Shown piece after piece: positions 16,100 through 46,168 of a stretch of 64,000 bases of DNA. Numbering within the stretch: the first letter of the stretch is position 1; every line of letters starts with the position of its first letter. Origin of the DNA: a virus (taxonomy: Duplodnaviria; Caudoviricetes); IMG/VR virus record IMGVR_UViG_3300025450_001231; one strand, given 5' to 3'. The notes under the pieces are model-generated. The model was not told the DNA's origin and searched no databases. It worked only from the letters and a program-made list of their open reading frames with translations. A program made the translations under genes and the position numbers.

Positions 16100-19000
16100 A
16101 TGGCAACGCTAGTAAGTCCAGGCGTATCAGTTACAGTAACAGATGAAAGCAATTACAGTCCTAATAGTTTAGGGACTGTTGCTTATATTTTATTGGCAAC
16201 TGCACAAAACAAAACAGCTCCAGGCGGCACTTCAATTGCGGCCGGGACACTAAGTCAGAATGCAGACAAAGTATATACCATTACTAGTCAAAGAGATTTA
16301 GTTACCACATTTGGTAACCCATTCTTTGCAACTACTAATAGTGGTGCTGCTATTAATGCTGACGAGCAAAATGAATACGGCTTGATGGCTGCATATAGTT
16401 TGTTGGGAGTATCGAATACAGTATATGTACAACGTGCTAATGTAGACTTAGGCGGATTAACAGGTACGACTATTCGTCCTGTAGATAATCCAGCAACTGG
16501 TACTTACTGGTTAGATACATCTACTACCAATTGGGGAATTTATCAGTGGGACGCATTTACTCAGTCATTCACTGAACAATCTCCGATTGTAATCACCAAT
16601 CCTTCATTACTAGTAAGTAATACAACACCTAATGTAACACTTGGTGGAATTGGTAGTTATGCTGTCAATGCTTATCAAAGTAATAATGTTCTTTACTATA
16701 AAGGATTGAGCAATACTTGGAATATAGTTGGGTCAACACAATGGCAATACGATATTCCTACAATAACAGGTTCGGTATTGAATCCTGTCATTCCTAGCGG
16801 CGGCGGAACAATAGATGTTAACGGTACAAACATTACATTTACTTCTGGTGAAAATTTAGCCAGTATTATTGCAACAATCAACGGTGCTGGTCCAGATAGT
16901 AATAATGTTGTTGCTACTACCAATAGTGTTAATCAGCTGATTCTAACTGGCTCTGCTTTAAGCAGCGGACAACAAATAACAATTACAGGAGATACTAATG
17001 TAATGCAAGCATTAGGACTCCACTCAGGTACTTTTACTGTTCCCCAAGTTCAAATAGCACCGTACTACAATATTCCACAGTGGCAAGGTCCAGTGGGCGG
17101 CGGAGAAAGTCCCCCAACTGGTAGTGTTTGGCAAAAAACCACTACATTAGGCGGAGGTTTATCACCAGTTGTTAACAAATACAATGCTACTAATGTAGCT
17201 TGGGAAACACAAAAAGTAACCGAATATCCAGATGTACTTACTGCTACATTCTCGTTGGATCCTACTGCAGGTGGTTTGAACATTACGCAAAATTCTATTT
17301 TTGCACAGTACAATGTAAAACAAGACAATATTACACCTAGCGTTTATTTCTGGGTTCGTAATGCAAGTGGTCCAACAATTGGAACAGGAACTACAACAAC
17401 TCCTACATACAACAACGGACAGTTTAACATAACCGTTAGACCTACTGTTAATTCTCCATCCACTACTACATATACTGTAACAGTATCTCAGCCAAGCGCA
17501 TTTGGATTTATTAGCGCAGTTAGTGCTGCAGGAATTCCTAATGTTAGTGCAAAACTAGCAACTTCTGGAGCAATGACATTGGTTCATGCTACAGGTGGCG
17601 ACATAATCATATATGAAAATGATGGCTACAATGTATTAGGCGGAGTTGGATTAACTGCTGGCACACATAATAATATTACAGTGGATCCGTCCGGCAGTGG
17701 TAATTCAATTATTAGTAATTGGGTTCCATTGGCATATATCCCAAGCAGCACACAACCTTATATTGATCCAGCAGATGGTACATACTGGTATTATGATAGT
17801 CCTGCACACGTAGATATCATGATTAATGATGGAACCAATTGGAAAGGTTATAGAACTTTGGCCGCTGATATCAGAGGCTATAATTTACAACAAACCAATG
17901 TTAACGGTCCTATTGTTAGCTCAAGTGCTCCTACTGCACAAGACAACGGTAATTCATTGGTATACGGCGATTTGTGGTTAGACACAAGCGACTTGGAAAA
18001 CTATCCAAGTATATACAGATGGCAAAGTGTCAATGCAGCTAACCAATGGGTTAAGATTGATCTTACAGATGAAACAAGTCAAAATGGTATCATATTTGCA
18101 GATGCTCGTTGGTCAGTAAATGGCACAACAGATCCTTCAACTGATGCAATGCCTAGTGTTGCTTCGTTAGCACTAAGCAATTATTTAGATTTGGATGCAC
18201 CTGATCCTACCATTCACCCACGCGGTATGTTGTTGTTTAACACACGAGCCAGTGGATACAATGTAAAACAATTTAGATTTAACTATTTCAATGGTACTTC
18301 ATTCCCTGACCAATCATTACCTGCACAGAAAAATGCGTGGGTAAGCGTTAGCGGATATGATGCAGGAAATTCACCAAACTTTGGCCGTAAAGCACAACGT
18401 GGTGTTGTTGTTGCTGCATTGAAATCAGCAATCGACAGTAGCACAGTATTGCGTGAAGAACAACACGCATTTAACTTAATTGCTTGCCCAGGATATCCTG
18501 AGTTAATTCCTAATATGGTTACACTCAACGATGACCGTGGAGACACAGCCTTTATCGTAGGCGATACACCAATGCGTTTGCCTGCTACTGGTACTGCAAT
18601 TCAAGCCTGGGCGCAAAATTCAAATAATGCACCTACTACAGGCGAGGATGGCTTAACAATTACTAACCCATATGTTGGAATTTATTATCCATCTGCACAA
18701 ACAAATGATTTAAGCGGTAATGCAATTGTTGTACCTCCAAGTCACGTGGCATTAAGAGTTATTAGTTTAAGTGATAATATGAGTTATCAATGGTTTGCAC
18801 CAGCTGGATCTCGTAGAGGTTTAATTGATAATGCAAGTAGCATTGGATATGTTGACGCTGATTCAGGCGCATATTATCCAGTGGGTATTACTCAAGGATT
18901 AAGAGATGTTATGTATACTAACTCAATTAATCCATACACTAACTTACCAGGAACTGGTTTATTGGTATACGGACAGAAAACATTAAGCCCAACTCCAAGT

Positions 19001-19357
19001 GCATTGGATCGTATTAATGTAGCAAGACTTGTTAACTATCTAAGAAGACAGTTATCAATTATTACTCGTCCATACTTGTTTGAACCAAACGACAGTATTA
19101 CACGCAGTGGCGTTAAAGCAGTTGTAAGTTCTATGCTAAACGATTTGATTAGCAAGCGCGGTATCACTGATTATTTGGTTGTATGTGATAGTACAAACAA
19201 TACTCCAGACCGTGTTGACAGAAATGAACTATGGATTGATGTAGCGATTGAACCAACTAAAGCAGTTGAGTTTATCTACATACCGATTAGATTGATGGCT
19301 TCAGGAGCTATTACATCGGGACTAGCGGCCGCAGAAATAGCAGGAAAAGGGGCATAA
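16100..19357 (+). CDS. tail sheath protein (T4 gp18-like)
   Basis: LVSPGVSVTVTDES N-terminus; WFAPAGSRRG, LDRINVARL, FEPND, AVEFIYIPI. Confidence 0.95.
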   Translation: MATLVSPGVSVTVTDESNYSPNSLGTVAYILLATAQNKTAPGGTSIAAGTLSQNADKVYTITSQRDLVTTFGNPFFATTNSGAAINADEQNEYGLMAAYSLLGVSNTVYVQRANVDLGGLTGTTIRPVDNPATGTYWLDTSTTNWGIYQWDAFTQSFTEQSPIVITNPSLLVSNTTPNVTLGGIGSYAVNAYQSNNVLYYKGLSNTWNIVGSTQWQYDIPTITGSVLNPVIPSGGGTIDVNGTNITFTSGENLASIIATINGAGPDSNNVVATTNSVNQLILTGSALSSGQQITITGDTNVMQALGLHSGTFTVPQVQIAPYYNIPQWQGPVGGGESPPTGSVWQKTTTLGGGLSPVVNKYNATNVAWETQKVTEYPDVLTATFSLDPTAGGLNITQNSIFAQYNVKQDNITPSVYFWVRNASGPTIGTGTTTTPTYNNGQFNITVRPTVNSPSTTTYTVTVSQPSAFGFISAVSAAGIPNVSAKLATSGAMTLVHATGGDIIIYENDGYNVLGGVGLTAGTHNNITVDPSGSGNSIISNWVPLAYIPSSTQPYIDPADGTYWYYDSPAHVDIMINDGTNWKGYRTLAADIRGYNLQQTNVNGPIVSSSAPTAQDNGNSLVYGDLWLDTSDLENYPSIYRWQSVNAANQWVKIDLTDETSQNGIIFADARWSVNGTTDPSTDAMPSVASLALSNYLDLDAPDPTIHPRGMLLFNTRASGYNVKQFRFNYFNGTSFPDQSLPAQKNAWVSVSGYDAGNSPNFGRKAQRGVVVAALKSAIDSSTVLREEQHAFNLIACPGYPELIPNMVTLNDDRGDTAFIVGDTPMRLPATGTAIQAWAQNSNNAPTTGEDGLTITNPYVGIYYPSAQTNDLSGNAIVVPPSHVALRVISLSDNMSYQWFAPAGSRRGLIDNASSIGYVDADSGAYYPVGITQGLRDVMYTNSINPYTNLPGTGLLVYGQKTLSPTPSALDRINVARLVNYLRRQLSIITRPYLFEPNDSITRSGVKAVVSSMLNDLISKRGITDYLVVCDSTNNTPDRVDRNELWIDVAIEPTKAVEFIYIPIRLMASGAITSGLAAAEIAGKGA

Positions 19358-23277: not shown

Positions 23278-23895
23278 ATGAAATCATTTCTCTCATATCT
23301 TACTGAAAGTACAAGAACTTATGATTTTAGAATTAGAATAGCTTGCGAGATGTCAGATGACATTATGGGCAAGTTAAAAACAATTCTAGAAATGTATAAG
23401 TTAGAAAGCATCAGTAAACCACGCAGACTACCAATCCAAGAAACTCCTGAGTTTCCTAATATGGGACCAGTGGAAGTTAATGTTATTGACATCGTATTAG
23501 GATATCCCACCAACGATGAAAAGATTCGTAGTTTGATTGCAGAGTGCGGATGTGTACCTGCTGCCTGTGTAAGAGTAACCCCGACAAATAGTCCGTATGA
23601 ATTGGTACGTGACGGTAAAGAAATCAGTAATCTTCACGGCAAACCTGGCGAAAGCGTGCTAATGCAAGCTGAGATGGTTGCAGAGAAAAAAGACGAAGAA
23701 TTAGTCGGCGACGCTCGAATCCCCAGCATCATGAAAGAATTACAAGATACACGAAAATACAAGTATCCAGATGCTGCAGGAGGCGAGCCTGCTGATGCTA
23801 AAACCAGTAACAGTTACCCACAAGGCCAAACTAGTCCAGTTGGCACACATAAAAATTCAATCCCTTCGGACGCCAAATTGAAAGCAGGAAAATAA
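23278..23895 (+). CDS. virion protein with capsid-targeting-like N-terminus
   Basis: MKSFLSYLTES resembles the T4 internal-protein signal MKTYQEFIAE; late motif upstream. Confidence 0.55.
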   Translation: MKSFLSYLTESTRTYDFRIRIACEMSDDIMGKLKTILEMYKLESISKPRRLPIQETPEFPNMGPVEVNVIDIVLGYPTNDEKIRSLIAECGCVPAACVRVTPTNSPYELVRDGKEISNLHGKPGESVLMQAEMVAEKKDEELVGDARIPSIMKELQDTRKYKYPDAAGGEPADAKTSNSYPQGQTSPVGTHKNSIPSDAKLKAGK

Positions 23896-26755: not shown

Positions 26756-27043
26756 ATGCAACAATATAAATTCCGCAGCAATGATTTTGTACCTGAAGGT
26801 GAAACAGGTATAGACGATGCAGTATTGGATGTCAATGATCCAATCAACGAAATGCGGGTATTAGCTGGGTTGGGCAATCAACCACAGTGGACAGAGTACA
26901 AAGGTCAACCTGGCAGTAATATCAGTGCTACTGCTACTGCCAAAGCTGAACTAATGAAAGAAAACAACATCAAGCCTGGAACACCTGAATGGTTCCAGCT
27001 TTGGTTTTCTAGACCGTACTTGACGGGCGAACCGCCGGTTTAG
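26756..27043 (+). CDS. hypothetical protein
   Basis: 95 aa ORF; IKPGTPEWFQLWF motif. Confidence 0.6.
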   Translation: MQQYKFRSNDFVPEGETGIDDAVLDVNDPINEMRVLAGLGNQPQWTEYKGQPGSNISATATAKAELMKENNIKPGTPEWFQLWFSRPYLTGEPPV

Positions 27044-27557
27044 GATCAATTCCCAAATAACGATACCAACTTTCGTGCTGAACGTGCACTGGTCTTTCTT
27101 TCCAACGATTTAACAATTGAAAATGTGATGGGTGATAGGGTTCACGCAAAGGCTTAATACGTTTGTGTCCTTTTTCGCTATTACAACTTTTGCAGGCTGC
27201 AACAGTATTCTCCCAAGTAGTGCGTCCGCCGTCACAACGTGGAATCACGTGATCAATAGTCAGCTCTTTGTAATCAAATGTATCTGCACAGTATTGACAC
27301 TGAAACATATCTCTCAAAAACAAATTGCCTCTACTAAATTTAGCAGACTTTTTGAATTTGAAATATTCTTTACTAACAACTACTGCAGGCACATTCATTG
27401 AAAAATGCTCACTGCGTATTAGCCAATCATCGTACTCTTCAAGTACAGTTACTTTATCTAAAAAATATAATTTTATACAATGTTGCCACCCGATAACACT
27501 GAGAGGTAAGACAGAAACTGGGTTCCAGTCACTGTTTAATAATAGTACGTCAGACAA
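27009..27557 (-). CDS. HNH endonuclease
   Basis: CQYC, LTIDHVIPR, GGRTTWENTVAACKSCNSEKG. Confidence 0.9.
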   Translation of the reverse strand: MSDVLLLNSDWNPVSVLPLSVIGWQHCIKLYFLDKVTVLEEYDDWLIRSEHFSMNVPAVVVSKEYFKFKKSAKFSRGNLFLRDMFQCQYCADTFDYKELTIDHVIPRCDGGRTTWENTVAACKSCNSEKGHKRIKPLREPYHPSHFQLLNRWKERPVHVQHESWYRYLGIDPKPAVRPSSTV

Positions 27558-27627: not shown

Positions 27628-29193
27628 ATGTCAAAGCCTACCGAAAATGCTCTTGTTAAGAAACCCAATACCCGGGAAACTTATACTGAGCAAGAAATAA
27701 GAGAAATTGCAAAGTGTGCAGATCCAGTCACTGGACCGCATCACTTTTTGAACAATTACTTTTACATTCAGCATCCTACCAAAGGACGAATGAAATATCA
27801 GCCTTTTGAGTATCAAGAACGATTGGTGGACACTTATCACAACTATAGATACAGTATCAATTTGATGCCACGACAAACTGGTAAATCAACAACTGCGGCC
27901 GGTTACTTGTTATGGTATGCGATGTTTGTGCCCGACAGTACCATTTTGGTAGCTGCACACAAATACACAGGTTCACAAGAGATTATGCAACGTATTCGTT
28001 ATGCGTATGAAAGTGTACCAGATTTTATTCGTGCTGGTGTTACCAGTTACAACAAAGGTAGTATAGACTTTGACACAGGATCCCGCATAGTCAGTGCCAC
28101 AACAACAGAAAATACCGGTCGTGGTATGTCTATATCCTTATTGTACTGTGATGAGTTTGCGTTCGTTCGACCTACTATTGCTAGTGAATTTTGGACTTCA
28201 ATTTCGCCAACATTGGCGACTGGCGGTAAGTGTATTATTACAAGTACCCCAAACAGTGATGAAGATCAGTTTGCACAAATTTGGCGTCAGGCCAATAAAC
28301 GCATAGACGAGTACGGTAACGAAACAGAATTAGGTGTTAATGGATTCAAAGCATTCCGTAGCTATTGGCAAGAGCATCCAGACCGTGATGAAACTTGGGC
28401 TGCAGAAATGTTGGCACAGTTAGGTGAAGATCGTTTCCGCCGTGAAATGAACTGCGAATTTATTATTTTCGACGAAACACTTATTAGTCCAACAGTATTG
28501 GTTGAGATGTCAGGTATAGATCCTATACAAAAACAAGGACAAGTACGTTGGTACTCTAAACCACAACCCGGAAAAACTTACTTGGTTGGATTAGATCCCA
28601 GTTTAGGCACAGGCGGCGACCCTGCTGCTATACAGATACTGGAATTGCCTAGTATGCATCAAGTTGGTGAATGGCAACACAACCGTACGCCTATACCGCA
28701 ACAGGTAAAGATACTGACCGAAATAACTCGTTATATAAGTGAAGCAATTGACTCTAACAATGATGTTTACTATAGTGTAGAAAATAACACAATCGGCGAA
28801 GCAGCATTAATTGCTATCGCCGAAGCAGGAGAAGAAAATATTCGTGGTATCTTTTTAAGCGAACCCAATCGTGCCGGGACTGGCAGACGATATCGCAAGG
28901 GATTTAATACTACTGCCAATAGTAAATTATCAGCTTGTGCTAAACTAAAGAGTCTAGTAGAAACAAAACGTCTGCGTATAGCCAGTAAAGCTTTGGTATC
29001 AGAGTTAAAGACCTTTGTAGCATCGGGTAATAGTTATAAAGCAAAAATAGGCGAAACAGACGATCTAGTAATGGCCATGATACTAGTGGTTCGTATGGCT
29101 ATGTTCTTGCGTGAATTTGACGCAGATTTGGATAGTAAACTCAATGATTCAGTGGATGATGTAATTATGCCTATGCCCTTTATCATGATGTAA
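27628..29193 (+). CDS. terminase large subunit (T4 gp17-like)
   Basis: PRQTGKST Walker A, LLYCDEFAFV Walker B, ITSTPN, GLDPSLG, TDDLVMA. Confidence 0.95.
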   Translation: MSKPTENALVKKPNTRETYTEQEIREIAKCADPVTGPHHFLNNYFYIQHPTKGRMKYQPFEYQERLVDTYHNYRYSINLMPRQTGKSTTAAGYLLWYAMFVPDSTILVAAHKYTGSQEIMQRIRYAYESVPDFIRAGVTSYNKGSIDFDTGSRIVSATTTENTGRGMSISLLYCDEFAFVRPTIASEFWTSISPTLATGGKCIITSTPNSDEDQFAQIWRQANKRIDEYGNETELGVNGFKAFRSYWQEHPDRDETWAAEMLAQLGEDRFRREMNCEFIIFDETLISPTVLVEMSGIDPIQKQGQVRWYSKPQPGKTYLVGLDPSLGTGGDPAAIQILELPSMHQVGEWQHNRTPIPQQVKILTEITRYISEAIDSNNDVYYSVENNTIGEAALIAIAEAGEENIRGIFLSEPNRAGTGRRYRKGFNTTANSKLSACAKLKSLVETKRLRIASKALVSELKTFVASGNSYKAKIGETDDLVMAMILVVRMAMFLREFDADLDSKLNDSVDDVIMPMPFIMM

Positions 29194-30723: not shown

Positions 30724-31725
30724 ATGGCAACATCTTTAGCAGAAATTCGTGCAAAATTACAAGCACAAGAGACACGTGGTAGTAACAACCAATCAGGTGG
30801 AGACAATGGCATTTACGCCCATTGGAACATTCCCGAAAATACAACAGCTCGTATTAGATTCCTTCCAGACGCAAACGCAAGTAACAGTTTTTTCTGGGTT
30901 GAAAGACTCATGATTAAATTGCCATTTGCTGGCATCAAAGGACAAGCGGATAGTAAACCAACTTTTGTACAAGTTCCTTGCGTTGAGATGTGGGGCGAAG
31001 CTTGCCCAATCTTGGCAGAAGTTCGTACTTGGTTTAAGGATTCTTCATTGGAAGAAATGGGTCGTAAGTATTGGAAGAAAAAATCTTATTTGTTCCAAGG
31101 CTTTGTAAGAGATAATCCTATCTCCGATGAAAAGGCTACAGACAATCCAATCCGTAGATTTGTTATCAGTCCACAAATTTTTAACATTGTTAAAAATGCG
31201 TTGATGGATCCAGAATTGGAAAACTTGCCAACAGACTACGAAGGCGGACTTGACTTTAACGTTAAGAAAACCAGCAAAGGCGGTTATGCTGATTATTCAA
31301 CTTCTAGTTGGGCACGTAGAGAAAGTGCATTGACTACTGATGAATTGAAAGCAGTTGAACAATTTGGTTTGTACAACTTGGCTGATTTCTTACCCAAGAA
31401 ACCCAGTGATGCTGAGCTTAAAATCATCAAAGAAATGTTTGAAGCAAGCGTTGATGGCGAAGCATATGATCCAGATCGTTGGGCCAACTATTACAAGCCA
31501 GCAGGTTTGAATAGTGCAGGTAATTCAGCTGCACCAGCAGCAACACCAGTTGCGGCACCTGCCCCAGTAGCAAAAGCTGCACCTGCTCCAGTAGCAGAGT
31601 CAGATGATGCTCCGTTTGATGCAGACGATGTAGTGGCAGAAGCAGTTGCTCCAGTAACAGCTGCCAAACCCAGTAGCCAACGTGCAGAAGACATTTTGGC
31701 AATGATCAGAAACCGTAAACAGTAA
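30724..31725 (+). CDS. single-stranded DNA-binding protein (T4 gp32-like)
   Basis: RIRFLPD, VPCVEMWG..CPI, DYSTSSW; Ala/Pro-rich linker. Confidence 0.9.
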   Translation: MATSLAEIRAKLQAQETRGSNNQSGGDNGIYAHWNIPENTTARIRFLPDANASNSFFWVERLMIKLPFAGIKGQADSKPTFVQVPCVEMWGEACPILAEVRTWFKDSSLEEMGRKYWKKKSYLFQGFVRDNPISDEKATDNPIRRFVISPQIFNIVKNALMDPELENLPTDYEGGLDFNVKKTSKGGYADYSTSSWARRESALTTDELKAVEQFGLYNLADFLPKKPSDAELKIIKEMFEASVDGEAYDPDRWANYYKPAGLNSAGNSAAPAATPVAAPAPVAKAAPAPVAESDDAPFDADDVVAEAVAPVTAAKPSSQRAEDILAMIRNRKQ

Positions 31726-31791: not shown

Positions 31792-32865
31792 ATGGCTAAG
31801 CCTTTCGACATTTCCAAATTTAGAAAAAATATCACAAAATCAATTGATGGTATTAGTATGGGATTTAATGATCCTACCGATTGGATCAGTACCAACAACT
31901 ATGCATTAAACTATCTTATCAGTGGAGACTTCCATAAAGGAATTCCAATGGGTAAGGTTACAGTTTTTGCAGGAGAATCCGGAGCAGGTAAAAGTTTTAT
32001 CTGTAGCGGTAATTTAATTAAAAATGCGCAAGAACAAGGAATTTATCCTATCTTGATTGATACAGAAAACGCATTAGATGAAAAATGGTTACACGCATTA
32101 GGCGTTGATACCAGCGAAGATAAGTTGCTTAAACTCAATATGGCAATGATTGATGATGTGGCTAAAATGATTACAGAGTTTGTTAAAGAGTATAAAACAC
32201 TTCCAGAAACAGATCGTCCAAAAGTTTTGATTGTGTTGGACAGTTTAGGTATGCTATTGACTCCAACTGATGTTAACCAGTTTGAAGCAGGTGACTTAAA
32301 AGGTGATATGGGCCGTAAGCCTAAAGCACTCACTGCATTGGTTCGTAACTGTGTTAATATGTTTGGTAGTTTGAATATCGGCCTAGTAGCAACTAACCAC
32401 ACTTATGCAAGTCAAGATATGTTTGACCCAGATGACAAGATTTCAGGTGGTCAAGGCTTTATCTATGCCAGCAGTATCGTAGTTGCTATGCGTAAGTTAA
32501 AGCTCAAAGAGGACGAAGATGGTAACAAAGTAAGTGAAGTAAAAGGTATTCGTGCTGCTTGTAAGATTATGAAAACCCGTTATGCCAAACCTTTTGAATC
32601 AGTACAAGTTAAAATCCCTTACGAAACAGGAATGAATCCTTACTCAGGATTGGTTGATATGTTTGAGGGTAAAGGTTTATTGGCAAAAGAAGGGAATAGT
32701 CTTAAATATACACTAGTAGATGGGACAGTTATTAAACAGTTTCGCAAGGCTTGGGAACGTAATGAAGATGGTAGTTTAGATCGTGTAATGGCCGACTTTA
32801 CTGCACATCCGCATCAAACACAAACTGAAGAAGCTGTACAACCTGAAGAGGAATCAGTAGAATGA
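31792..32865 (+). CDS. uvsX: RecA-like recombinase
   Basis: FAGESGAGKS, IDTENALD, VLDSLGML, GGQGFIYASS. Confidence 0.92.
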   Translation: MAKPFDISKFRKNITKSIDGISMGFNDPTDWISTNNYALNYLISGDFHKGIPMGKVTVFAGESGAGKSFICSGNLIKNAQEQGIYPILIDTENALDEKWLHALGVDTSEDKLLKLNMAMIDDVAKMITEFVKEYKTLPETDRPKVLIVLDSLGMLLTPTDVNQFEAGDLKGDMGRKPKALTALVRNCVNMFGSLNIGLVATNHTYASQDMFDPDDKISGGQGFIYASSIVVAMRKLKLKEDEDGNKVSEVKGIRAACKIMKTRYAKPFESVQVKIPYETGMNPYSGLVDMFEGKGLLAKEGNSLKYTLVDGTVIKQFRKAWERNEDGSLDRVMADFTAHPHQTQTEEAVQPEEESVE

Positions 32866-33088: not shown

Positions 33089-33541
33089 ATGTGGTACAAC
33101 AAAGTTGTTGCCGACTTGGGAAATATTCCCGCCTTCATTGACTATTACGAAAACGAGCTAATCGAAGCCAAATACGATTGCTCGGTTAAAGGTCACTTGG
33201 AAAAAAATATTGCAGCTTTGCCTGGTATAACTGAACAGAGATTTAATCAGCTTCAAGAAATTGAAGCTGTATTAAACTTTTTGAATATTCAATTACGAAA
33301 GATTCGTAAGAAACACTTTCAAAAATACCTTGAAGGCTATGCCCGAGCACTTACAAGTCGCGATGCTGAAAAGTATGTAGACGGCGAAGATGAAGTCATT
33401 GACTTTGAAACTATTATCAACGAAGTAGCACTGATTAGAAACAAATGGCTGGGCTTAATGAAGGGTCTTGAAAGCAAGAACTTTATGATAGGTCACGTTG
33501 CTCGACTCAGAACTGCAGGTATGGAAGATATTACACTATAA
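33089..33541 (+). CDS. uvsY: recombination mediator protein
   Basis: YLEGYARALTSRDAEKYVDGE and KGLESK; follows uvsX. Confidence 0.75.
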   Translation: MWYNKVVADLGNIPAFIDYYENELIEAKYDCSVKGHLEKNIAALPGITEQRFNQLQEIEAVLNFLNIQLRKIRKKHFQKYLEGYARALTSRDAEKYVDGEDEVIDFETIINEVALIRNKWLGLMKGLESKNFMIGHVARLRTAGMEDITL

Positions 33542-33549
33542 GTAATAAT

Positions 33550-34329
33550 ATGAAAATAGTATTATGCACCGGGGGGTTTGACCCAGTCCACAGTGGACAT
33601 ATCAAATTACTTAAAGCTTCAAAAACATTGGGCGATATGCTGATCGTAGGAATTAATTCCGATGCTTGGCTTGAGCGTAAAAAAGGTCGGGCATTTATGC
33701 CATTCCAAGAGCGAGCCTGTATAATTGATAATCTATCAATGGTTGATTATGTAATCAACTTTAGCGATGACGATAATACTGCTTGTGATGCTATTCGTAA
33801 AGTTCGTGCTGAATATCCCGACGCTGAAATTATTTTTGCAAACGGCGGAGACCGTACTAAAGAAAACATTCCTGAAATGATTTTCGACGATGTAGAATTT
33901 GTATTTGGAGTAGGTGGAGAAGACAAAGCCAACAGCAGTAGTTGGATATTACAAGAATGGAAAGCACCCAAAACAAATCGTACTTGGGGATACTATCGAG
34001 TACTGCACGAAAATGGCAAGCAAGTTAAACTTAAAGAATTAACTGTAGCTCCGGGAAAATATTTAAGTATGCAACGTCACAGTGACCGTGCGGAACATTG
34101 GTTCGTAGCAGAAGGTACTGCCACAGTATATACTGTCAATCGCAGTACAGATACAGAACTATTGGGAGTGTTTGATACATTTGAACACATACATATCAAT
34201 CGTACTGAATGGCACCAGTTGGCCAATGAGACCAGTGCACCATTAAAGATTATCGAGATTCAATACGGTGAGAATTGTGTTGAAGAAGATATCGAACGTA
34301 TATCAATGTCAGTGGCTACCGGGCATTAA
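33550..34329 (+). CDS. cytidylyltransferase (RfaE-like) fused to type II mannose-6-phosphate isomerase cupin
   Basis: TGGFDPVHSGH, ANGGDR; C-terminal RTWGYY...SMQRH...EHW...IEIQYG. Confidence 0.85.
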   Translation: MKIVLCTGGFDPVHSGHIKLLKASKTLGDMLIVGINSDAWLERKKGRAFMPFQERACIIDNLSMVDYVINFSDDDNTACDAIRKVRAEYPDAEIIFANGGDRTKENIPEMIFDDVEFVFGVGGEDKANSSSWILQEWKAPKTNRTWGYYRVLHENGKQVKLKELTVAPGKYLSMQRHSDRAEHWFVAEGTATVYTVNRSTDTELLGVFDTFEHIHINRTEWHQLANETSAPLKIIEIQYGENCVEEDIERISMSVATGH

Positions 34330-34881
34330 TAAGCCAAACATTTCTTCTTGACTCTGTAGGATTAATCTATATAAGTTGCGATGCTTAAATGCATACTCTT
34401 GTCCTACGCTAGTCAATGTTGCAGGAGGCAATTTGCAACGACTTTCAGTCTCAGTACCACTGGTAAAGTTCTTAACTTCGAGACTATGCTTTTCACATAA
34501 GTGGCGAATGGCCTTGTTCCAAGTCAAACAATGCATAAACAAATGACTGTAGCCTCTGTTACGTGCCCACACAATTGCTTCTTCCATCAATTGATCTGCA
34601 ATACCTTGTTTGCGATTGGCACCGTTAACAATAATACCAAATTCAACTTCTGTTTCGTTGACTACTGCAATATGTACTGCACCAATCCATACTTTATTTC
34701 TTTCGGCAACTAAAAAATAGTTTTGCTCGGGATTCTTTACAAATCCTTCTACCAAGTGATCAATAAAGTAATCAGTTACAGGCAAGCCAAAGAACATTCG
34801 AATGGTTTCTTCGTCTTGTTCTTTAAGCCAATCTGCGTATAAGTAATATTCAGTTTGTGACAGGAATCTGGTTGTTATCAT
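34309..34881 (-). CDS. GNAT family N-acetyltransferase
   Basis: EFGIIV...RKQGIADQLM and N..IRHLCEKH. Confidence 0.8.
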   Translation of the reverse strand: MITTRFLSQTEYYLYADWLKEQDEETIRMFFGLPVTDYFIDHLVEGFVKNPEQNYFLVAERNKVWIGAVHIAVVNETEVEFGIIVNGANRKQGIADQLMEEAIVWARNRGYSHLFMHCLTWNKAIRHLCEKHSLEVKNFTSGTETESRCKLPPATLTSVGQEYAFKHRNLYRLILQSQEEMFGLLMPGSH

Positions 34882-35203
34882 AAAAATATTTAGTTGAATC
34901 TGCAGTCTCTACAATAATACTGCCATAGTCTTTTACTATAGTTAAGTGGTTATCTTGTGCAAAATTTAGTACAAAATCAAACGCCAACGGTTCGATATCG
35001 TTGAGTTTAGTGTCTAAAATAACACATTTGATCTGATCTATTACCGTAGGCATAACATACACTGAATAACCTGGATTTTTAATGTTAGTGATCTTTTGTG
35101 CATTAGGGCGATAATGTGCTACAACCGAACACAGTCTATCACTCCAATCACTGGGCCTAAAAATTGCACCAGCAATAGTTATTCCTTTGATAAGATATTT
35201 CAT
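34850..35203 (-). CDS. DUF3579-like protein
   Basis: IKGIT..G.IFRPSDWSDRL motif; ATG at 35203 overlaps the upstream stop. Confidence 0.7.
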   Translation of the reverse strand: MKYLIKGITIAGAIFRPSDWSDRLCSVVAHYRPNAQKITNIKNPGYSVYVMPTVIDQIKCVILDTKLNDIEPLAFDFVLNFAQDNHLTIVKDYGSIIVETADSTKYFYDNNQIPVTN

Positions 35204-35304
35204 GCTGATGCTATAGTATATGCTAACACTAAAATAAGACAAGTGATTGCAAATTTAACACCAAATTCTTCAATTTGACTGATTTTGTTGATTGCTTGAA
35301 TCAT
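35200..35304 (-). CDS. small membrane peptide (34 aa)
   Basis: MIQAINKISQIEEFGVKFAITCLILVLAYTIASA; below the ORF-track cutoff. Confidence 0.5.
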   Translation of the reverse strand: MIQAINKISQIEEFGVKFAITCLILVLAYTIASA

Positions 35305-35307
35305 TGA

Positions 35308-35412
35308 TTACTTTCCGTTATGCAAACTACTTACCAACTGATCCGCACGAGCTTTACGAGCTTCGATAATAGATTCTAACATTGTTTTGAAAAAAGATTT
35401 AATTGTGTTCAT
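35308..35412 (-). CDS. small protein (34 aa)
   Basis: MNTIKSFFKTMLESIIEARKARADQLVSSLHNGK; AAGGA RBS upstream. Confidence 0.55.
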   Translation of the reverse strand: MNTIKSFFKTMLESIIEARKARADQLVSSLHNGK

Positions 35413-35423
35413 AATATTATTCC

Positions 35424-35519
35424 TTATTTTGATAAAACAGTTAATGTTAAACCAAGTGCTAACGCTAATAGTGTATAGGTCAGAACTTTCATGGTTGCAA
35501 CAAATAATTCATCATTCAT
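35424..35519 (-). CDS. small membrane peptide (31 aa)
   Basis: MNDELFVATMKVLTYTLLALALGLTLTVLSK; ATGA coupling. Confidence 0.5.
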   Translation of the reverse strand: MNDELFVATMKVLTYTLLALALGLTLTVLSK

Positions 35520-35665
35520 ACTAGACCGCCGTATCTTTGTTGATCATAATGACGTAACCAAAATTCAACTTCTGCAGGTGAACTTGGGTTTTTGCTGGCA
35601 ATATATGCTTCCATTGCCGTTGGAGTGTTTAATAGTTTTTTAAGTTTATTGATTAAGTGTAACAT
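35516..35665 (-). CDS. DUF3563-like small protein (49 aa)
   Basis: MEAYIASKNPSSPAEVEFWLRHYD; AAGGAAAA RBS. Confidence 0.55.
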   Translation of the reverse strand: MLHLINKLKKLLNTPTAMEAYIASKNPSSPAEVEFWLRHYDQQRYGGLV

Positions 35666-35817
35666 TGTGTGTTTTCCTTGTTATAGTAAAAACTAATGGT
35701 TTCTACTAATAGTATTTATACTGATGTTAGTATAACACAACGATTTATGCATAGCTATTGAATATGGCTAAATCTTTGTGCTATAATTTGTTTTTATTAA
35801 CTAAATAGGATATAACC

Positions 35818-37359
35818 GTGAAAAATATGAGAATTACCGACATCATTACAGAAGATTTGGCAGTGGATGCAAGATATGCAACCAGAGCAGAGATGAATAT
35901 TCTTTCCCAAAAGCTATCTGCCCAATTACCAGAGTATAGATTTAGTGTTGAAAAGAAATCTACTAGTGAAGTAATTTATATTCGTATTTTTAACGCAGAC
36001 AAGCAAGCTATCGTTGATTACTTTAGAGCACAAGGTCTTGACCAATTGCCGTTAGAGCCTGAACAAGCAGGCATTAGCGCAAAGTATCGCAATAATATTT
36101 TAAGTTATCAAACCAGTAGTAGACACATTGAGCCTATTGCTCAAAATAAACAACACAAAGTACCACAAACAAAAACCAATGCACAAACTGTTATCTATAC
36201 ATTGGTTGTAGCCAGTTCTGGTAAAGAAGAAGAAACTGGTGTTGGTGTTAGCATTAAAGAATTTACTCCTACTAGTTTGGGACTAGCAGGCCGTAAGTAT
36301 ACAAAAGACACATTGATCCAAGCTGCTCAACAAGCAGTAGCTGAAAAAACCAAAACTCGCAAAGATCTACAACAGATTTTGTTGGGGCTGATTGATGTTG
36401 CAGCCAACGGTGGCAAAGGTACACTACCTCCAGCAGTTAATCAAAATTTAAGCGGTAGAGCACGCAATCAACTTAGCGTGGACTTTGGTGAAATACTTGC
36501 TCCTATACTGATTGCAGAAAATGATCAAGAAATTGAATTCCCTGCAGATGGAAACTTCCCATTGATTGACGTGATTGTCAACAAGGTTAATTATAGTGTC
36601 AAGAGCTTAACAGGTTCGGGTACTAGTTTTCGCAGTATCAGTGATTTAATGGATAACTTTGAAAAGACTGTTGAGAAAGATACTAAACAAGAAAAATTGT
36701 TTGCGTTATTCAAAGGCTACCATCCTAAATCAGGCGGCTCCAACAAAGACAAAATTCTTCGTGCAGCCCAATTGATTCAGGTTCCAGAACTTAAAAAACT
36801 GACATCGTCTTTGGGCAAAAAAATTAGCGGTGACATTAATTTTGAAAATCTTAAAGCCATTTTGGCAAAAGTTGTAGACCCAACTGACAAAAGTACAGAT
36901 GCATACACAAAGTTTTTGAATTGGGTTTACCCCAGTATGACTGCCGGCGGTTGGGGAAAACCAGTTGGGCTACCACAAGACGGCAATCGCTATATGGGAA
37001 ACAAGACCAAGACCAAAAGCAAAGACGAAAAAGGTTCAGATGAACCAATCGAAAAAACCGCAGGCTATCCCAGTTTCCGTGCTGATCCTCTAGAAGCTGC
37101 GGCCAACATAGTAACTTATATGTTGGGAGTTGCAACACTTAACGCAGTCACTCGTGGCCCAGATGCCGACGATTATGCTCATATGATGACCAACGTGGTC
37201 AACCAAAGTTCAGCGTCTTTGGGAAGATTGGACATAACAGACAGCGGCGGTTTGGTTGTTTCTACCAAGCCATTCAGTGAATTGAAGTTCAAATTCCAAT
37301 ATCACGCACCAAGTCATTTACCAGGAAATAATTTACCTGGCTTTATGATAGTGTATTGA
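35818..37359 (+). CDS. putative PD-(D/E)XK nuclease with capsid-targeting-like N-terminus
   Basis: FGEIL...PLIDVIVNKVNYSVK motif; MRITDIITED N-terminus; adjacent to a DNA MTase. Confidence 0.5.
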   Translation: MKNMRITDIITEDLAVDARYATRAEMNILSQKLSAQLPEYRFSVEKKSTSEVIYIRIFNADKQAIVDYFRAQGLDQLPLEPEQAGISAKYRNNILSYQTSSRHIEPIAQNKQHKVPQTKTNAQTVIYTLVVASSGKEEETGVGVSIKEFTPTSLGLAGRKYTKDTLIQAAQQAVAEKTKTRKDLQQILLGLIDVAANGGKGTLPPAVNQNLSGRARNQLSVDFGEILAPILIAENDQEIEFPADGNFPLIDVIVNKVNYSVKSLTGSGTSFRSISDLMDNFEKTVEKDTKQEKLFALFKGYHPKSGGSNKDKILRAAQLIQVPELKKLTSSLGKKISGDINFENLKAILAKVVDPTDKSTDAYTKFLNWVYPSMTAGGWGKPVGLPQDGNRYMGNKTKTKSKDEKGSDEPIEKTAGYPSFRADPLEAAANIVTYMLGVATLNAVTRGPDADDYAHMMTNVVNQSSASLGRLDITDSGGLVVSTKPFSELKFKFQYHAPSHLPGNNLPGFMIVY

Positions 37360-37384
37360 CATTTAATACAATCTCTGCTATAAT
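37356..37384 (+). promoter_or_regulatory. sigma70-type promoter, leaderless MTase transcript
   Basis: TTGACA-17-TATAAT; ATG at 37391. Confidence 0.85.
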
Positions 37385-37390
37385 ACTCAT

Positions 37391-38305
37391 ATGATTACAC
37401 GCATTAACGGTGATTGCATAGAAGTCGCCTATGAAATTCCAGATCTTAGTATTGACTTACTGTTAACAGATCCTCCCTACAATATCAGTGGTGGTGGAGC
37501 TGAGCCTGTTTGGATTGACAAAGCCACTGGCCTAAACAAAACTACAATACACAATCAAAACTTCAGCAAAGACTTTGCTGAAAATTGGGATGATGTTGAG
37601 CACGATGAATTTCTAAGTCAACTTGACTCTTGGAGTGAAATGTGGTTCTCAAAGTTGCGTAAAGGTGCTAGCTTTGCTGTATTCATCAGTGACCAATATG
37701 TCAGTTACTTGTGGAAAAGTATGGAGCGTGCAGGGTTTGAACCTAAACGTGTTTGGACTTGGAAAAAGCCTGCAGCAGTTCCATTCAATCGACAGGTAAA
37801 TCCGGTAAGTGCTTGTGAGTATATCCTGTGGGGAATCAAACCCGGAGGTAAGCGTACATTTAATGCAGATGCAGCTCCTGGCACTATTGTTGAGCGTTAT
37901 GCGGCTGCTGATAAAATCAGTAGCATTGTCTACAAGTTAGCAAAAGAAACAGACGCTGAAGCCAACTTGGAACGAATCTTTGCACAAGCATTGGCAGAAG
38001 CAAAAACAATGTTACGTGATCGTAAGCGAGATAAAGGTAATGTACAATGTGTAATTCCCAACACTATCACTTATAGTGGCGGATTGGGAAAGAATAAGAT
38101 TCATCCAACTGAAAAGCCAGTGGAATTATTAGAGTACTTTATTGAACTGCTAAGTAATGAAAACGACACGGTATTGGATACATTTGCGGGCAGTGGCAGC
38201 ACAGGTGTTGCTGCTGAACGTAGAAATAGAAATTGCATCTTAATTGAACGTGACAGAGATATGTTTTTTAAGATGAGTAAAAAGTTTAATGCGCTGGTAA
38301 CTTAA
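37391..38305 (+). CDS. beta-class N4-cytosine/N6-adenine DNA methyltransferase
   Basis: DLLLTDPPY near the N-terminus, HPTEKP, VLDTFAGSGSTG near the C-terminus. Confidence 0.9.
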   Translation: MITRINGDCIEVAYEIPDLSIDLLLTDPPYNISGGGAEPVWIDKATGLNKTTIHNQNFSKDFAENWDDVEHDEFLSQLDSWSEMWFSKLRKGASFAVFISDQYVSYLWKSMERAGFEPKRVWTWKKPAAVPFNRQVNPVSACEYILWGIKPGGKRTFNADAAPGTIVERYAAADKISSIVYKLAKETDAEANLERIFAQALAEAKTMLRDRKRDKGNVQCVIPNTITYSGGLGKNKIHPTEKPVELLEYFIELLSNENDTVLDTFAGSGSTGVAAERRNRNCILIERDRDMFFKMSKKFNALVT

Positions 38306-38325: not shown

Positions 38326-38397
38326 GCGACTTTAGCATAGCGGTAGTGCCGAGAACTCATAATTCTTACGGGACTGGTTCGAATCCAGTAGGTCGCA
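38326..38397 (+). tRNA. tRNA with CAT anticodon (Ile2 or elongator Met); 3-prime end CAA rather than CCA
   Basis: GCGACTT/AGGTCGC acceptor, GAGAA-CTCATAA-TTCTT, GGTTCGAATCC. Confidence 0.8.
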
Positions 38398-38438
38398 CAA
38401 ATAATCTTTTAATTCTTTCCACCATTTATCCAAAATCA

Positions 38439-38467
38439 TTGACAATCAAGACTAAATAAAATATAAT
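38439..38467 (+). promoter_or_regulatory. perfect sigma70 promoter of the attenuator leader
   Basis: TTGACA-17-TATAAT. Confidence 0.9.
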
Positions 38468-38474
38468 AGATACT

Positions 38475-38618
38475 ATGATGACTAACACTTTTAATCATTT
38501 GTGCAGACAAAACCAACAACCCAAACTAAGTCTGGGTGGCGTAGTAGCCTATTGGTCTATGACATCTGCAACAGAGATTAATAGTTCAGATCGTTTACCA
38601 AGCAGGGGTTTAAGTTAA
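38475..38618 (+). CDS. putative leaderless leader peptide (47 aa, all 20 amino acids)
   Basis: MMTNTFNHLCRQNQQPKLSLGGVVAYWSMTSATEINSSDRLPSRGLS; starts at the predicted +1 and stops inside the antiterminator arm. Confidence 0.65.
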   Translation: MMTNTFNHLCRQNQQPKLSLGGVVAYWSMTSATEINSSDRLPSRGLS

Positions 38619-38651
38619 CATATTCTATTAAAGTATTTTAACTTAAACCCC
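38605..38651 (+). promoter_or_regulatory. antiterminator hairpin
   Basis: GGGGTTTAAGTTAA (38605-18) is the perfect reverse complement of TTAACTTAAACCCC (38638-51). Confidence 0.7.
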
Positions 38652-38681
38652 AGGACTAAAAACCCTGGGGTTTTTGTTTTT
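38645..38681 (+). terminator. intrinsic (attenuator) terminator
   Basis: AAACCCCAGG/CCTGGGGTTT 10-bp stem plus TTGTTTTT tail; shares AAACCCC with the antiterminator. Confidence 0.85.
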
Positions 38682-38696
38682 GTAAAGGAGAAAACT

Positions 38697-38849
38697 GTGA
38701 ACAAAAATTTAATTAGACAACAAAAGTTTTTGCAAGAGCATACTTTGACTCCTGAAAAGAGAGCAAAGTTAATTGAAGAAAAGCTCAAACGAGCAGAAGC
38801 TTTATTAAAAGAGATTATGGAAAAAGATAAGAAATTATCAAAAGATTAA
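38697..38849 (+). CDS. small charged helical protein (50 aa)
   Basis: AAGGAG RBS, GTG start; MNKNLIRQQKFLQEHTLTPEKRAKLIEEKLKRAEALLKEIMEKDKKLSKD. Confidence 0.6.
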   Translation: MNKNLIRQQKFLQEHTLTPEKRAKLIEEKLKRAEALLKEIMEKDKKLSKD

Positions 38850-38859
38850 TCAAAGTGAA

Positions 38860-39042
38860 AAAAAGGAAACGAGGTCCTTAGCACACTATAAATAGCTAGA
38901 ACGGGCGGAGACAGGGATGGCTTATCTTCTTGTAGATAAAAAAATCTGTCATAGTAAAGTTCATTAGATGAATATGTAACGTGAAGACGTTGGCTCCCAT
39001 TGACCGGGACGTTCGAAACAAAATACTAGTGAACTTTACTAT
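38860..39042 (+). ncRNA. candidate structured ncRNA(s)
   Basis: No ORF; nested stems GACAG/CTGTC and TTATCT/AGATAA, and a 17-bp stem 38951-67 with 39026-42 enclosing hairpins and GTTCGAAAC. Confidence 0.4.
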
Positions 39043-39048
39043 AAACTC

Positions 39049-39077
39049 TTGACACATTCAATTTTTGTTGTTATAAT
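39049..39077 (+). promoter_or_regulatory. sigma70-type promoter
   Basis: TTGACA-17-TATAAT. Confidence 0.85.
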
Positions 39078-39100
39078 ATGTTTTTAAGGACACAATACCA

Positions 39101-45691: not shown

Positions 45692-46168
45692 ATGGAAAAA
45701 ATACAACCAAAACTTTATGTATTAATCGGAGTACCGGCTAGCGGTAAAAGCACGTGGGTCAACGCCCAAAATTGGTCAAATGATTGTGCTATTGTCAGCA
45801 CAGACTATTGGGTAGAGCGTGAAGCCAAGAGTCGAGGTGTTACTTATTCAGAAATTTTTGAAGAGTATATGCCTACTGCACTGGAGTTGATGCTTCATAT
45901 GGTAGAACTTGCCTACGAAGAAGGTCGTGATATTATATGGGATCAAACCAGTACTACAGTATCCAGTCGTCTAAGAAAAATAAAGTTACTGCCCGATTAC
46001 TATAAAATTGCGGTAGTGTGTAAAACCCCGCCGATGAGTGAAATAATGACCAGAGTGAACAACAGACCTGGTAAAAATATTCCACGCGATGTGATTGTGA
46101 AAATGATTAAAAATTGGGAAGATCCTACCCTTGAAGAAGGATTTGACGAAATTTGGAATATAAACTAA
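45692..46168 (+). CDS. AAA_33 / polynucleotide-kinase-like P-loop protein
   Basis: GVPASGKST, VSTD, DQTS...R, RPGKNIP. Confidence 0.8.
   Translation: MEKIQPKLYVLIGVPASGKSTWVNAQNWSNDCAIVSTDYWVEREAKSRGVTYSEIFEEYMPTALELMLHMVELAYEEGRDIIWDQTSTTVSSRLRKIKLLPDYYKIAVVCKTPPMSEIMTRVNNRPGKNIPRDVIVKMIKNWEDPTLEEGFDEIWNIN

Follow-up and report, generated by a model that had tools for sequence, protein, structure and literature searches.

A putative restriction-modification-like gene pair in a freshwater T4-like phage and the loss of CATG sites among its relatives

IMG/VR record IMGVR_UViG_3300025450_001231, from which we analysed a stretch of 64 kilobases (kb; hereafter the window), represents an uncultured freshwater T4-like phage. 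In the window, a gene for a 510-residue protein with restriction-endonuclease-like features is followed directly by a DNA methylase gene, and the question raised by this locus is what purpose such a pair might serve in a lytic T4-like phage. Restriction-modification is textbook host defence, and the use of a restriction enzyme as a weapon by a virus is, to our knowledge, established only for the chloroviruses. A preliminary description of this DNA had proposed a nuclease made late and packaged in the virion, functionally paired with a methylase made early. We approached the question through fold neighbours, catalytic motif, gene linkage, promoter geometry and CATG statistics, all of which were computed or directly observed. 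On balance, we regard it as probable that the pair is a phage-borne Type II restriction-modification-like module, with CATG as its most likely target, and with self-immunity achieved either by methylation or by purging of the site from the phage genome. The features of the locus are as follows (nt, nucleotides; aa, amino acids):

35758-35787, plus strand: weak sigma70-like promoter, TTGAAT-18-TATAAT with a TG-extended -10 element; 10 of 12 positions match
35800-35807, plus strand: T4-type late-promoter-like box, ACTAAATA, 27 nt before the ATG of the nuclease-like gene
35827-37359, plus strand: restriction-endonuclease-like protein, 510 aa, from the ATG at 35827; alternative start, GTG at 35818
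35827-35856, plus strand: N-terminal peptide MRITDIITED, with the consensus M-[RK]-hydrophobic-x-[ED]-hydrophobic and a hydrophobic-x-Glu site
36490-36603, plus strand: predicted active site E222...D248-x8-S257-x-K259, followed by an invariant GSGTS loop
37356-37384, plus strand: sigma70 promoter of the methylase gene, TTGACA-17-TATAAT; 12 of 12 positions match
37391-38305, plus strand: beta-class N6/N4 DNA methyltransferase, 304 aa, PF01555

Family alignment favours the ATG at 35827 as the start of the first gene, so that the 513-residue open reading frame (ORF) with an E...D-x8-S-x-K motif singled out in the preliminary description is present, at a length of 510 residues. The putative catalytic residues, E222 (codon 36490-36492), D248 (36568-36570), S257 (36595-36597) and K259 (36601-36603; numbering from the ATG), stand in the order and at the spacing expected of a restriction-type site. 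Across 61 homologues, with identities down to 28%, E222, D248 and K259 never vary, and position 257 is serine in 52 of these and alanine in the other nine. When distant members (~20-30% identity) are included in the alignment, the invariant positions are K144, P148, G221-E222, D248, K259 and G263. The active site of the restriction enzyme ThaI comprises Glu54, Asp82 and Ser91-x-Lys93, i.e. E-x27-D-x8-S-x-K, and tolerates replacement of the serine by alanine (PMC3025569); the pattern of the phage family is E-x25-D-x8-(S/A)-x-K. Given this ThaI-like geometry and the shared tolerance of Ser and Ala, the 510-residue protein is likely, by analogy, to possess a functional restriction-type active site.

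More than 230 homologues were recovered from large protein collections, all of them metagenomic and all labelled 'hypothetical', and an exhaustive search found 92 among representatives at 50% identity, the distant ones aligning at residues ~115-340. No named family for the protein was found in Pfam, PHROG or NCBIfam, its remote members being likewise unmatched, and a profile search of PDB sequences gave no match. A weak match to LPD29 (E 0.034) was dropped, being shown by only 2 of 44 homologues. Among cultured phages, tblastn matched Phage C48C1 only, while a fold search of BFVD found homologues in cultured phages. One of them, p140 of phage S-PM2, is tied to the family by fold (BFVD E 1e-6), synteny and motif, and is missed at the sequence level by the superfamily profile search. 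By sequence, the 510-residue protein thus falls into none of the named families of restriction enzymes.

The AlphaFold model of the full protein has a predicted local distance difference test score (pLDDT) of 84, with residues 1-12 below 50, and that of the core alone (residues 140-510) has a pLDDT of 92 and a predicted template-modelling score (pTM) of 0.87. In the predicted layout, an N-terminal domain (residues 16-136) precedes the core, in which a PD-(D/E)XK-like sheet is split by a helical insertion of ~190 residues. An exhaustive VIA search with the modelled core is enriched in PD-(D/E)XK nucleases, which make up most of its nearest solved folds: I-Ssp6803I comes first (Z 5.6), and the other top neighbours are NhoI, MspI, EcoRV, HhaI, NlaIV, Hjc, SwaI, HinP1I, ThaI and HincII. 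In a fold search of the ESM Atlas the nearest named families, after the family's own clusters, are those of SmaI and ThaI (both TM 0.43), and a language-model feature search places the protein nearest to clusters of HinP1I/MspI/HaeIII-like enzymes (score 0.90). In a VIA search with the whole protein, the N-terminal domain matches the palms of nucleotidyltransferases (Z <=5.6).

The protein might instead share only the fold of a nuclease, being catalytically inert and serving in DNA binding or in a structural role. Such a view would accommodate both the weakness of the fold matches and the replacement by Ser or Ala of the canonical acidic residue of the (D/E)xK element. However, serine at this position is compatible with activity in ThaI and in the NgoMIV group (PMC3025569), and the invariance of E, D and K at ~20-30% identity is typical of a working active site; hence, we regard an inert protein as very improbable.

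The next gene encodes, as the preliminary description had it, a beta-class methyltransferase: its product matches PF01555 (E 2.5e-37; 129.4 bits against a cut-off of 26.7) and has TDPPYN (residues 26-31) ahead of FAGSGS (residues 265-270), i.e. the DPPY-before-FxGxG order of this class. Its nearest solved relatives are M1.HpyAVI and CcrM, followed by MboIIA and RsrI. The earlier expectation that the two genes would co-occur across phages is borne out from both sides. Among 69 IMG/VR loci with enough sequence downstream of the nuclease gene, 41 carry an orthologous methylase (62-74% identical), which lies directly 3' of the nuclease gene in all but three; in these three, from two contigs, it is upstream and divergently oriented. 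The adjacency holds even where the nuclease proteins are only 28-35% identical. In the search from the methylase side, a family ORF ends 0-60 nt 5' of the methylase in ~25 of 33 informative loci, including divergent members of ~420 aa. The flanking genes vary among loci, with cupin/cytidylyltransferase genes, HSP70/HSP20/heme oxygenase genes or others upstream. The endonuclease-like and methyltransferase genes are thus adjacent and co-inherited, as expected of a Type II system. In locus L092 (8281-9970), the orthologous methylase has as neighbours not the nuclease gene but two other methylase-like genes (Eco57I-type and N6_Mtase), with which it makes up a small island of methylases. Distant relatives of the nuclease gene (L081, 3319-5004, and a contig with P0081) have their start overlapped by a gene of 520-561 aa, assigned to DUF6267 in L081, which points to a further conserved partner in methylase-less branches.

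A second arrangement is found in the Agrobacterium jumbo phage Atu_ph07, whose CDS190 (AUZ94972.1) matches the superfamily profile (E 3.6e-36) and retains the segments KQLTPTKLG, DYGEIL, FYDL, YNVKSGSGSG and NNFPGF. CDS190 overlaps by 4 nt the end of the methylase gene CDS189, the product of which is of the D12 class (PF02086), not homologous to the window methylase, and bears the same annotation label as hpyIM. In Helicobacter pylori, hpyIM is a CATG-specific methylase gene located next to iceA (PMC13340068). The pairing of a D12 methylase with the nuclease recurs in the metagenomic locus L224. As one nuclease family is thus coupled to two unrelated methylase families, these pairs look like restriction-modification systems.

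The site on which the pair might act is suggested by tetramer counts. CATG occurs 41 times in the window against 183 expected (observed/expected ratio, O/E, 0.22). In twelve methylase-less loci, representing six clades of the nuclease tree and 130 kb, it does not occur at all against 363 expected, a count confirmed with an independent tool, and the next-lowest tetramer there has an O/E of 0.68; in 24 methylase-bearing loci (278 kb) the O/E of CATG is 0.40. Four entire methylase-less contigs of 88, 50, 53 and 43 kb likewise contain no CATG (198, 157, 161 and 129 expected, respectively). The three CATG-free contigs that were searched with the family model lack a PF01555 gene, and an orthologue of the methylase is absent from the 88-kb and 43-kb ones. 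None of the genes adjoining the nuclease gene in methylase-less loci is a methylase, and none was found in five methylase-less contigs, which are fragments 5-25% complete. A single methylase-less clade has normal CATG counts, and on its 143-kb contig, the only one in that clade long enough to test, an orthologous methylase (73% identical) lies 20 kb away.

The same tendency is seen when relatives are sampled independently of the nuclease gene. Loci of 79 relatives were gathered through UvsX (78-96% identical), and those without a nuclease gene have CATG at an O/E of 0.86-0.91, none being CATG-free; an orthologous nuclease gene is present in just two loci, and these have less CATG than any of the others (0/17 and 2/26). 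In the subfamily of Atu_ph07, a member without a methylase (L223) has no CATG against 10.3 expected, the member with a D12 methylase (L224) has 10 against 7.3 expected, and the Atu_ph07 locus itself has an O/E of 0.40. CATG loss therefore follows the nuclease gene rather than the phage clade. Together, the fold neighbours, the ThaI-type motif, the adjacency, the second methylase family and the CATG purge strongly support the functional pairing of nuclease and methylase that the preliminary description had put forward.

In the simplest account of these observations, CATG would be modified by the enzymes of either methylase family and, when unmethylated, cut by those of the nuclease family, so that a phage with the nuclease needs either a methylase or a CATG-free genome; nuclease activity, the CATG specificity of either enzyme, the timing of expression and the target (host or competitor DNA) are the parts that we infer. 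Under the proposed mechanism, the product of 35827-37359 would represent a new family of sequence-specific DNA endonucleases, and that of 37391-38305 would be its cognate adenine (or N4-cytosine) methyltransferase. The methylase would be made as a leaderless mRNA from a host-type promoter of its own, and might thus modify replicating phage DNA early; the nuclease, encoded behind a T4-type late box, would cut unmethylated CATG in the DNA of the host or of competing phages. Methylase-less lineages would be immune because every CATG has been removed from their genomes. A restriction-modification-like module would explain at once the predicted fold, the linkage of the two genes, the preservation of the catalytic residues where the methylase is missing, and the CATG loss that tracks the nuclease gene.

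Several observations weigh against this interpretation: 1) Each VIA score is modest (Z <=5.6), below what is convincing for a single match, and Foldseek searches of the PDB with the full-length and core models returned only noise; as to the nuclease fold, which the preliminary description had advised checking with AlphaFold, the dominance of PD-(D/E)XK neighbours in VIA speaks for it and the Foldseek result against it. 2) NCBIfam and sequence searches describe the window methylase and CDS189 only as 'adenine-specific', and the window methylase is probably CATG-specific on the strength of genome statistics and of a label on a non-homologous enzyme. 3) The methylase also occurs without the nuclease gene. 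4) The remote members (P0158 type, Phage C48C1 and S-PM2 p140) have no adjacent methylase and near-normal CATG (O/E 0.54-0.88). 5) Some methylase-bearing loci are nearly free of CATG (L110, 1/74; L111, 0/33). 6) Other tetramers have been purged where no family gene was found, AGCT fully so in L174 (0/54), or where only a remote member is present, as with ACGT in L150 (2/43), so that the purge of CATG, too, could be the effect of restriction by the host. AGCT has also been purged from a carrier of the family gene, the 53-kb contig G008 (L134-L136), where it stands at 0/125.

The last four of these points, together with the AGCT purge in G008 and the lineage-specific loss of TTTAAA from the window, also favour a CATG avoidance driven by the hosts, the lineage-specific purging of other tetramers being what host restriction would lead one to expect. 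In that case the hosts would carry NlaIII/HpyI-like CATG systems, the methylase would be an orphan anti-restriction enzyme, phages without it would purge CATG, and the 510-residue protein would be a merely syntenic gene with another DNA role, such as repair, recombination or non-specific breakdown of host DNA. The partial CATG depletion of some loci with the methylase alone would fit such a scenario. However, relatives that lack the nuclease and whose UvsX is 78-96% identical have normal CATG, and the pattern recurs in a distant subfamily with a different methylase family. Moreover, the overlap of the methylase -35 element with the nuclease stop codon is conserved, the adjacency of the two genes outlasts inversion and changes of flanking genes, and the catalytic residues are invariant in methylase-less lineages. 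Host-driven avoidance accordingly appears to us an unlikely explanation of the locus, and we return to the restriction-modification-like module as the preferred one.

How the two genes might be timed is indicated by their promoters. The preliminary description had noted a late motif, TAAATA, at 35802, and it is indeed there, at 35802-35807 within ACTAAATA. Fifteen of the 27 plus-strand copies of TAAATA in the window lie within 60 nt 5' of the 62 gene starts examined, against ~1.6 expected, i.e. the motif is ~10-fold enriched just 5' of the window genes, including those for neck and tail. The -27 geometry of the box is repeated at a gp14-like gene (13843) and at 23278, and in most orthologous loci a (N)ATAAATA box lies 4-19 nt before the ATG of the family gene. 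The weak TTGAAT-18-TATAAT promoter that had been pointed out as a caveat is equally present, and in many related loci a sigma70-type or extended -10 element is likewise found 5' of the late box.

The methylase gene has, as described earlier, a consensus sigma70 promoter of its own and a leaderless-type start: the TGA stop codon of the nuclease gene falls within the -35 hexamer, just 6 nt separate the -10 hexamer from the methylase ATG, and a Shine-Dalgarno sequence is lacking, predicting a leaderless design. TTGACA-17-TATAAT-(5 to 7)-ATG is kept in nearly all loci with the nuclease/methylase pair, and this conserved, putatively leaderless promoter, embedded in the upstream stop codon, constitutes a compact regulatory design. 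Elsewhere in the window, two more promoters reach nearly to a start codon: TGTTATAAT stops 6 nt short of the ATG of a kinase-like gene at 45692 (region 45660-45700), and another TTGACA-17-TATAAT stops 7 nt short of an ATG at 38475 (region 38439-38477). Leaderless starts may be a recurring device of early genes in this phage. A temporal split, with the methylase made early and the nuclease late, is plausible from these arrangements. The late box at the nuclease gene is conserved, but sigma70-type elements also precede this gene, so that the split is not a clean one.

The further proposal that the nuclease travels in the virion draws on its N-terminal peptide. T4 has an established capsid-targeting sequence and injected internal proteins (PMC3012670), and MRITDIITE conforms to the T4-type peptide of ~10 residues ending in (L/I)-x-Glu. 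Across the family, a hydrophobic-x-E element occurs within the first 13 residues in 142 of 166 distinct N-termini (86%), compared with 131 of 742 background ORFs (18%); MRFFEI, MKFSFKNYLAE and MKTFLNE, for instance, are similar to the targeting signal of T4. The peptide is kept at the amino-acid level, the arginine codon being AGA, CGA or CGT, and in many homologues it is followed by a variable low-complexity linker. Similar N-termini had been noted in a supposed head operon of the window. Both peptides, MKSFLSYLTE (23278) and MKITEIISE (26345), exist, but their surroundings, where the TerL gene and a gp4-like head-completion gene occur together with unknown genes, do not make up a classical head operon.

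A full version of the preliminary model would have a nuclease that is made only late, enters the prohead by means of its N-terminal peptide, is trimmed after Glu by a gp21-type protease and, once delivered along with the phage DNA, attacks that of the host within minutes, in the manner of the chlorovirus enzymes. The conserved late box and the strong enrichment of T4-signal-like N-termini with a linker behind them speak for such a course, as do two precedents: the injected internal proteins of T4, and the chloroviruses, in which the endonuclease and methylase genes are adjacent and the endonuclease, but not the methylase, is packaged, the former being used against host DNA while the latter protects the viral genome (PMC7019647). 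Against it, mass spectrometry of the virions of Atu_ph07, the only relative with such data, detected 131 proteins, and both CDS190 and CDS189 are missing from this set (PMC6102473, Table S5). Likewise, p140 of S-PM2 carries no annotation as a virion protein and belongs to a replication module, its start overlapping (ATGA) the stop codon of an upstream cytidylyltransferase gene. The sigma70-like promoters 5' of the nuclease gene, here and in relatives, also argue against late-only synthesis, and the window holds no protease or head genes against which the cleavage rule could be checked. Thus, the family-wide hydrophobic-x-Glu signal upholds one part of the packaging claim, while the Atu_ph07 virion proteome goes against the other. 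Delivery of the nuclease inside the virion would be possible but is doubtful, and the complete sequence of events just outlined seems to us about equally doubtful. The most inclusive version, in which a widespread family of phage CATG restriction enzymes would enter capsids by means of a T4-like targeting peptide and be injected to shred the DNA of hosts and rival phages, while the phage itself would be immune through an early, leaderless methylase or, as in six or more lineages, through a genome devoid of CATG ('restriction without modification'), is on the whole unlikely.

The wider setting of the pair is that of a T4-like genome, as seen from the following genes:

16100-19357: tail sheath
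27628-29193: TerL
30724-31725: gp32-like single-stranded DNA-binding protein
31792-32865: UvsX
33089-33541: UvsY
33550-34329: cupin/cytidylyltransferase gene

A tail tube gene and 23 tRNA genes (38326-43872) are also encoded. A blastn search with the window found no DNA-level relatives among cultured phages; the stretch is present in lake and freshwater metagenomes, and no RNA runs containing it are listed. An HNH endonuclease gene (27009-27557, minus strand) lies just 5' of the TerL gene. Between the cupin/cytidylyltransferase and nuclease genes there is a minus-strand block (34309-35665) comprising a GNAT acetyltransferase gene, a DUF3579 gene and small ORFs. This block looks like an insertion, because the family gene of several relatives, like that of S-PM2, comes directly after a cytidylyltransferase-type gene, which in the relatives is fused to a cupin. 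On the other side, a tRNA-Met gene (38326-38398) starts 20 nt after the methylase stop codon, and as no terminator was found between them, the methylase transcript may continue into the tRNA array. Two further sites are scarce in the 64 kb: for TTTAAA, 36.7 copies would be expected and none occurs, and for GCGC, 31 copies stand against an expectation of 72. The loss of TTTAAA is not common to the pooled related loci, and hence looks like a lineage-specific avoidance of a host enzyme of the DraI/AhaIII type.

The family is a large one: its hundreds of homologues come from lytic T4-like phages of lake and sea water as well as from a jumbo phage in culture. Genome statistics tie it to a single four-base site and suggest two interchangeable routes to self-immunity, either methylation or a genome stripped of that site. 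If the restriction-modification-like reading is true, the family would provide: 1) a new variant of the restriction enzyme fold; 2) an explanation of CATG-free phage genomes; 3) a simple marker, the CATG count, that predicts the state of the system; and 4) a handle on phage-host and phage-phage DNA warfare in natural waters.

Among known systems, the nearest fold neighbours of the 510-residue protein are ThaI (PF15514), SmaI, the EcoRV/HincII/NlaIV group and MspI/HinP1I. With ThaI it has in common a glutamate on the preceding helix, an aspartate at the start of a strand, a Ser-x-Lys eight residues on and a serine that tolerates alanine, and with the small Type IIP enzymes a gene adjoining that of a DNA methylase. 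Unlike the ThaI-type enzymes, to which it has no detectable sequence similarity, it has twice their length, an additional N-terminal domain and the ~190-residue helical insertion in its core, and the family has an invariant C-terminal strand region, FQYHAPSHxPGNNLPGF. It is also encoded by lytic T4-like phages and not by cells, and its target would be CATG, as against CGCG for ThaI.

CATG, the putative target here, is that of NlaIII/HpyI (iceA1-hpyIM) of Neisseria and Helicobacter, and the Atu_ph07 methylase, of the D12 class, shares the hpyIM label. The window methylase, in contrast, is of the beta class (PF01555) and not homologous to hpyIM, and the nuclease folds differ; NlaIII is classified in the HNH superfamily (PMC2441816), so that, if CATG is right, the phage family would be an independent solution. 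With the T4 internal proteins (IPI-III, Alt), the 510-residue protein shares a short conserved N-terminus with a hydrophobic-x-Glu element, a fast-evolving remainder and a late promoter, but unlike them its Atu_ph07 homologue was not detected in virions.

The closest parallel in lifestyle is with the chloroviruses, one enzyme of which, CviAII of PBCV-1, cuts C/ATG. Here, too, adjacent endonuclease and methylase genes are encoded by a virus and would likely be put to offensive use, and the nearest language-model feature clusters are those of chlorovirus-type HinP1I/MspI-like enzymes. In contrast to the chlorovirus systems, the present one belongs to bacteriophages and packaging of its nuclease is doubtful, and many of its relatives have dropped the methylase and have a CATG-free genome; we know of no description of a reliance on site-free genomes in chloroviruses. 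New with respect to all these systems are the protein family itself, its home in lytic T4-like phages, the conserved, putatively leaderless promoter set in the upstream stop codon, and the apparent site-free alternative to modification.

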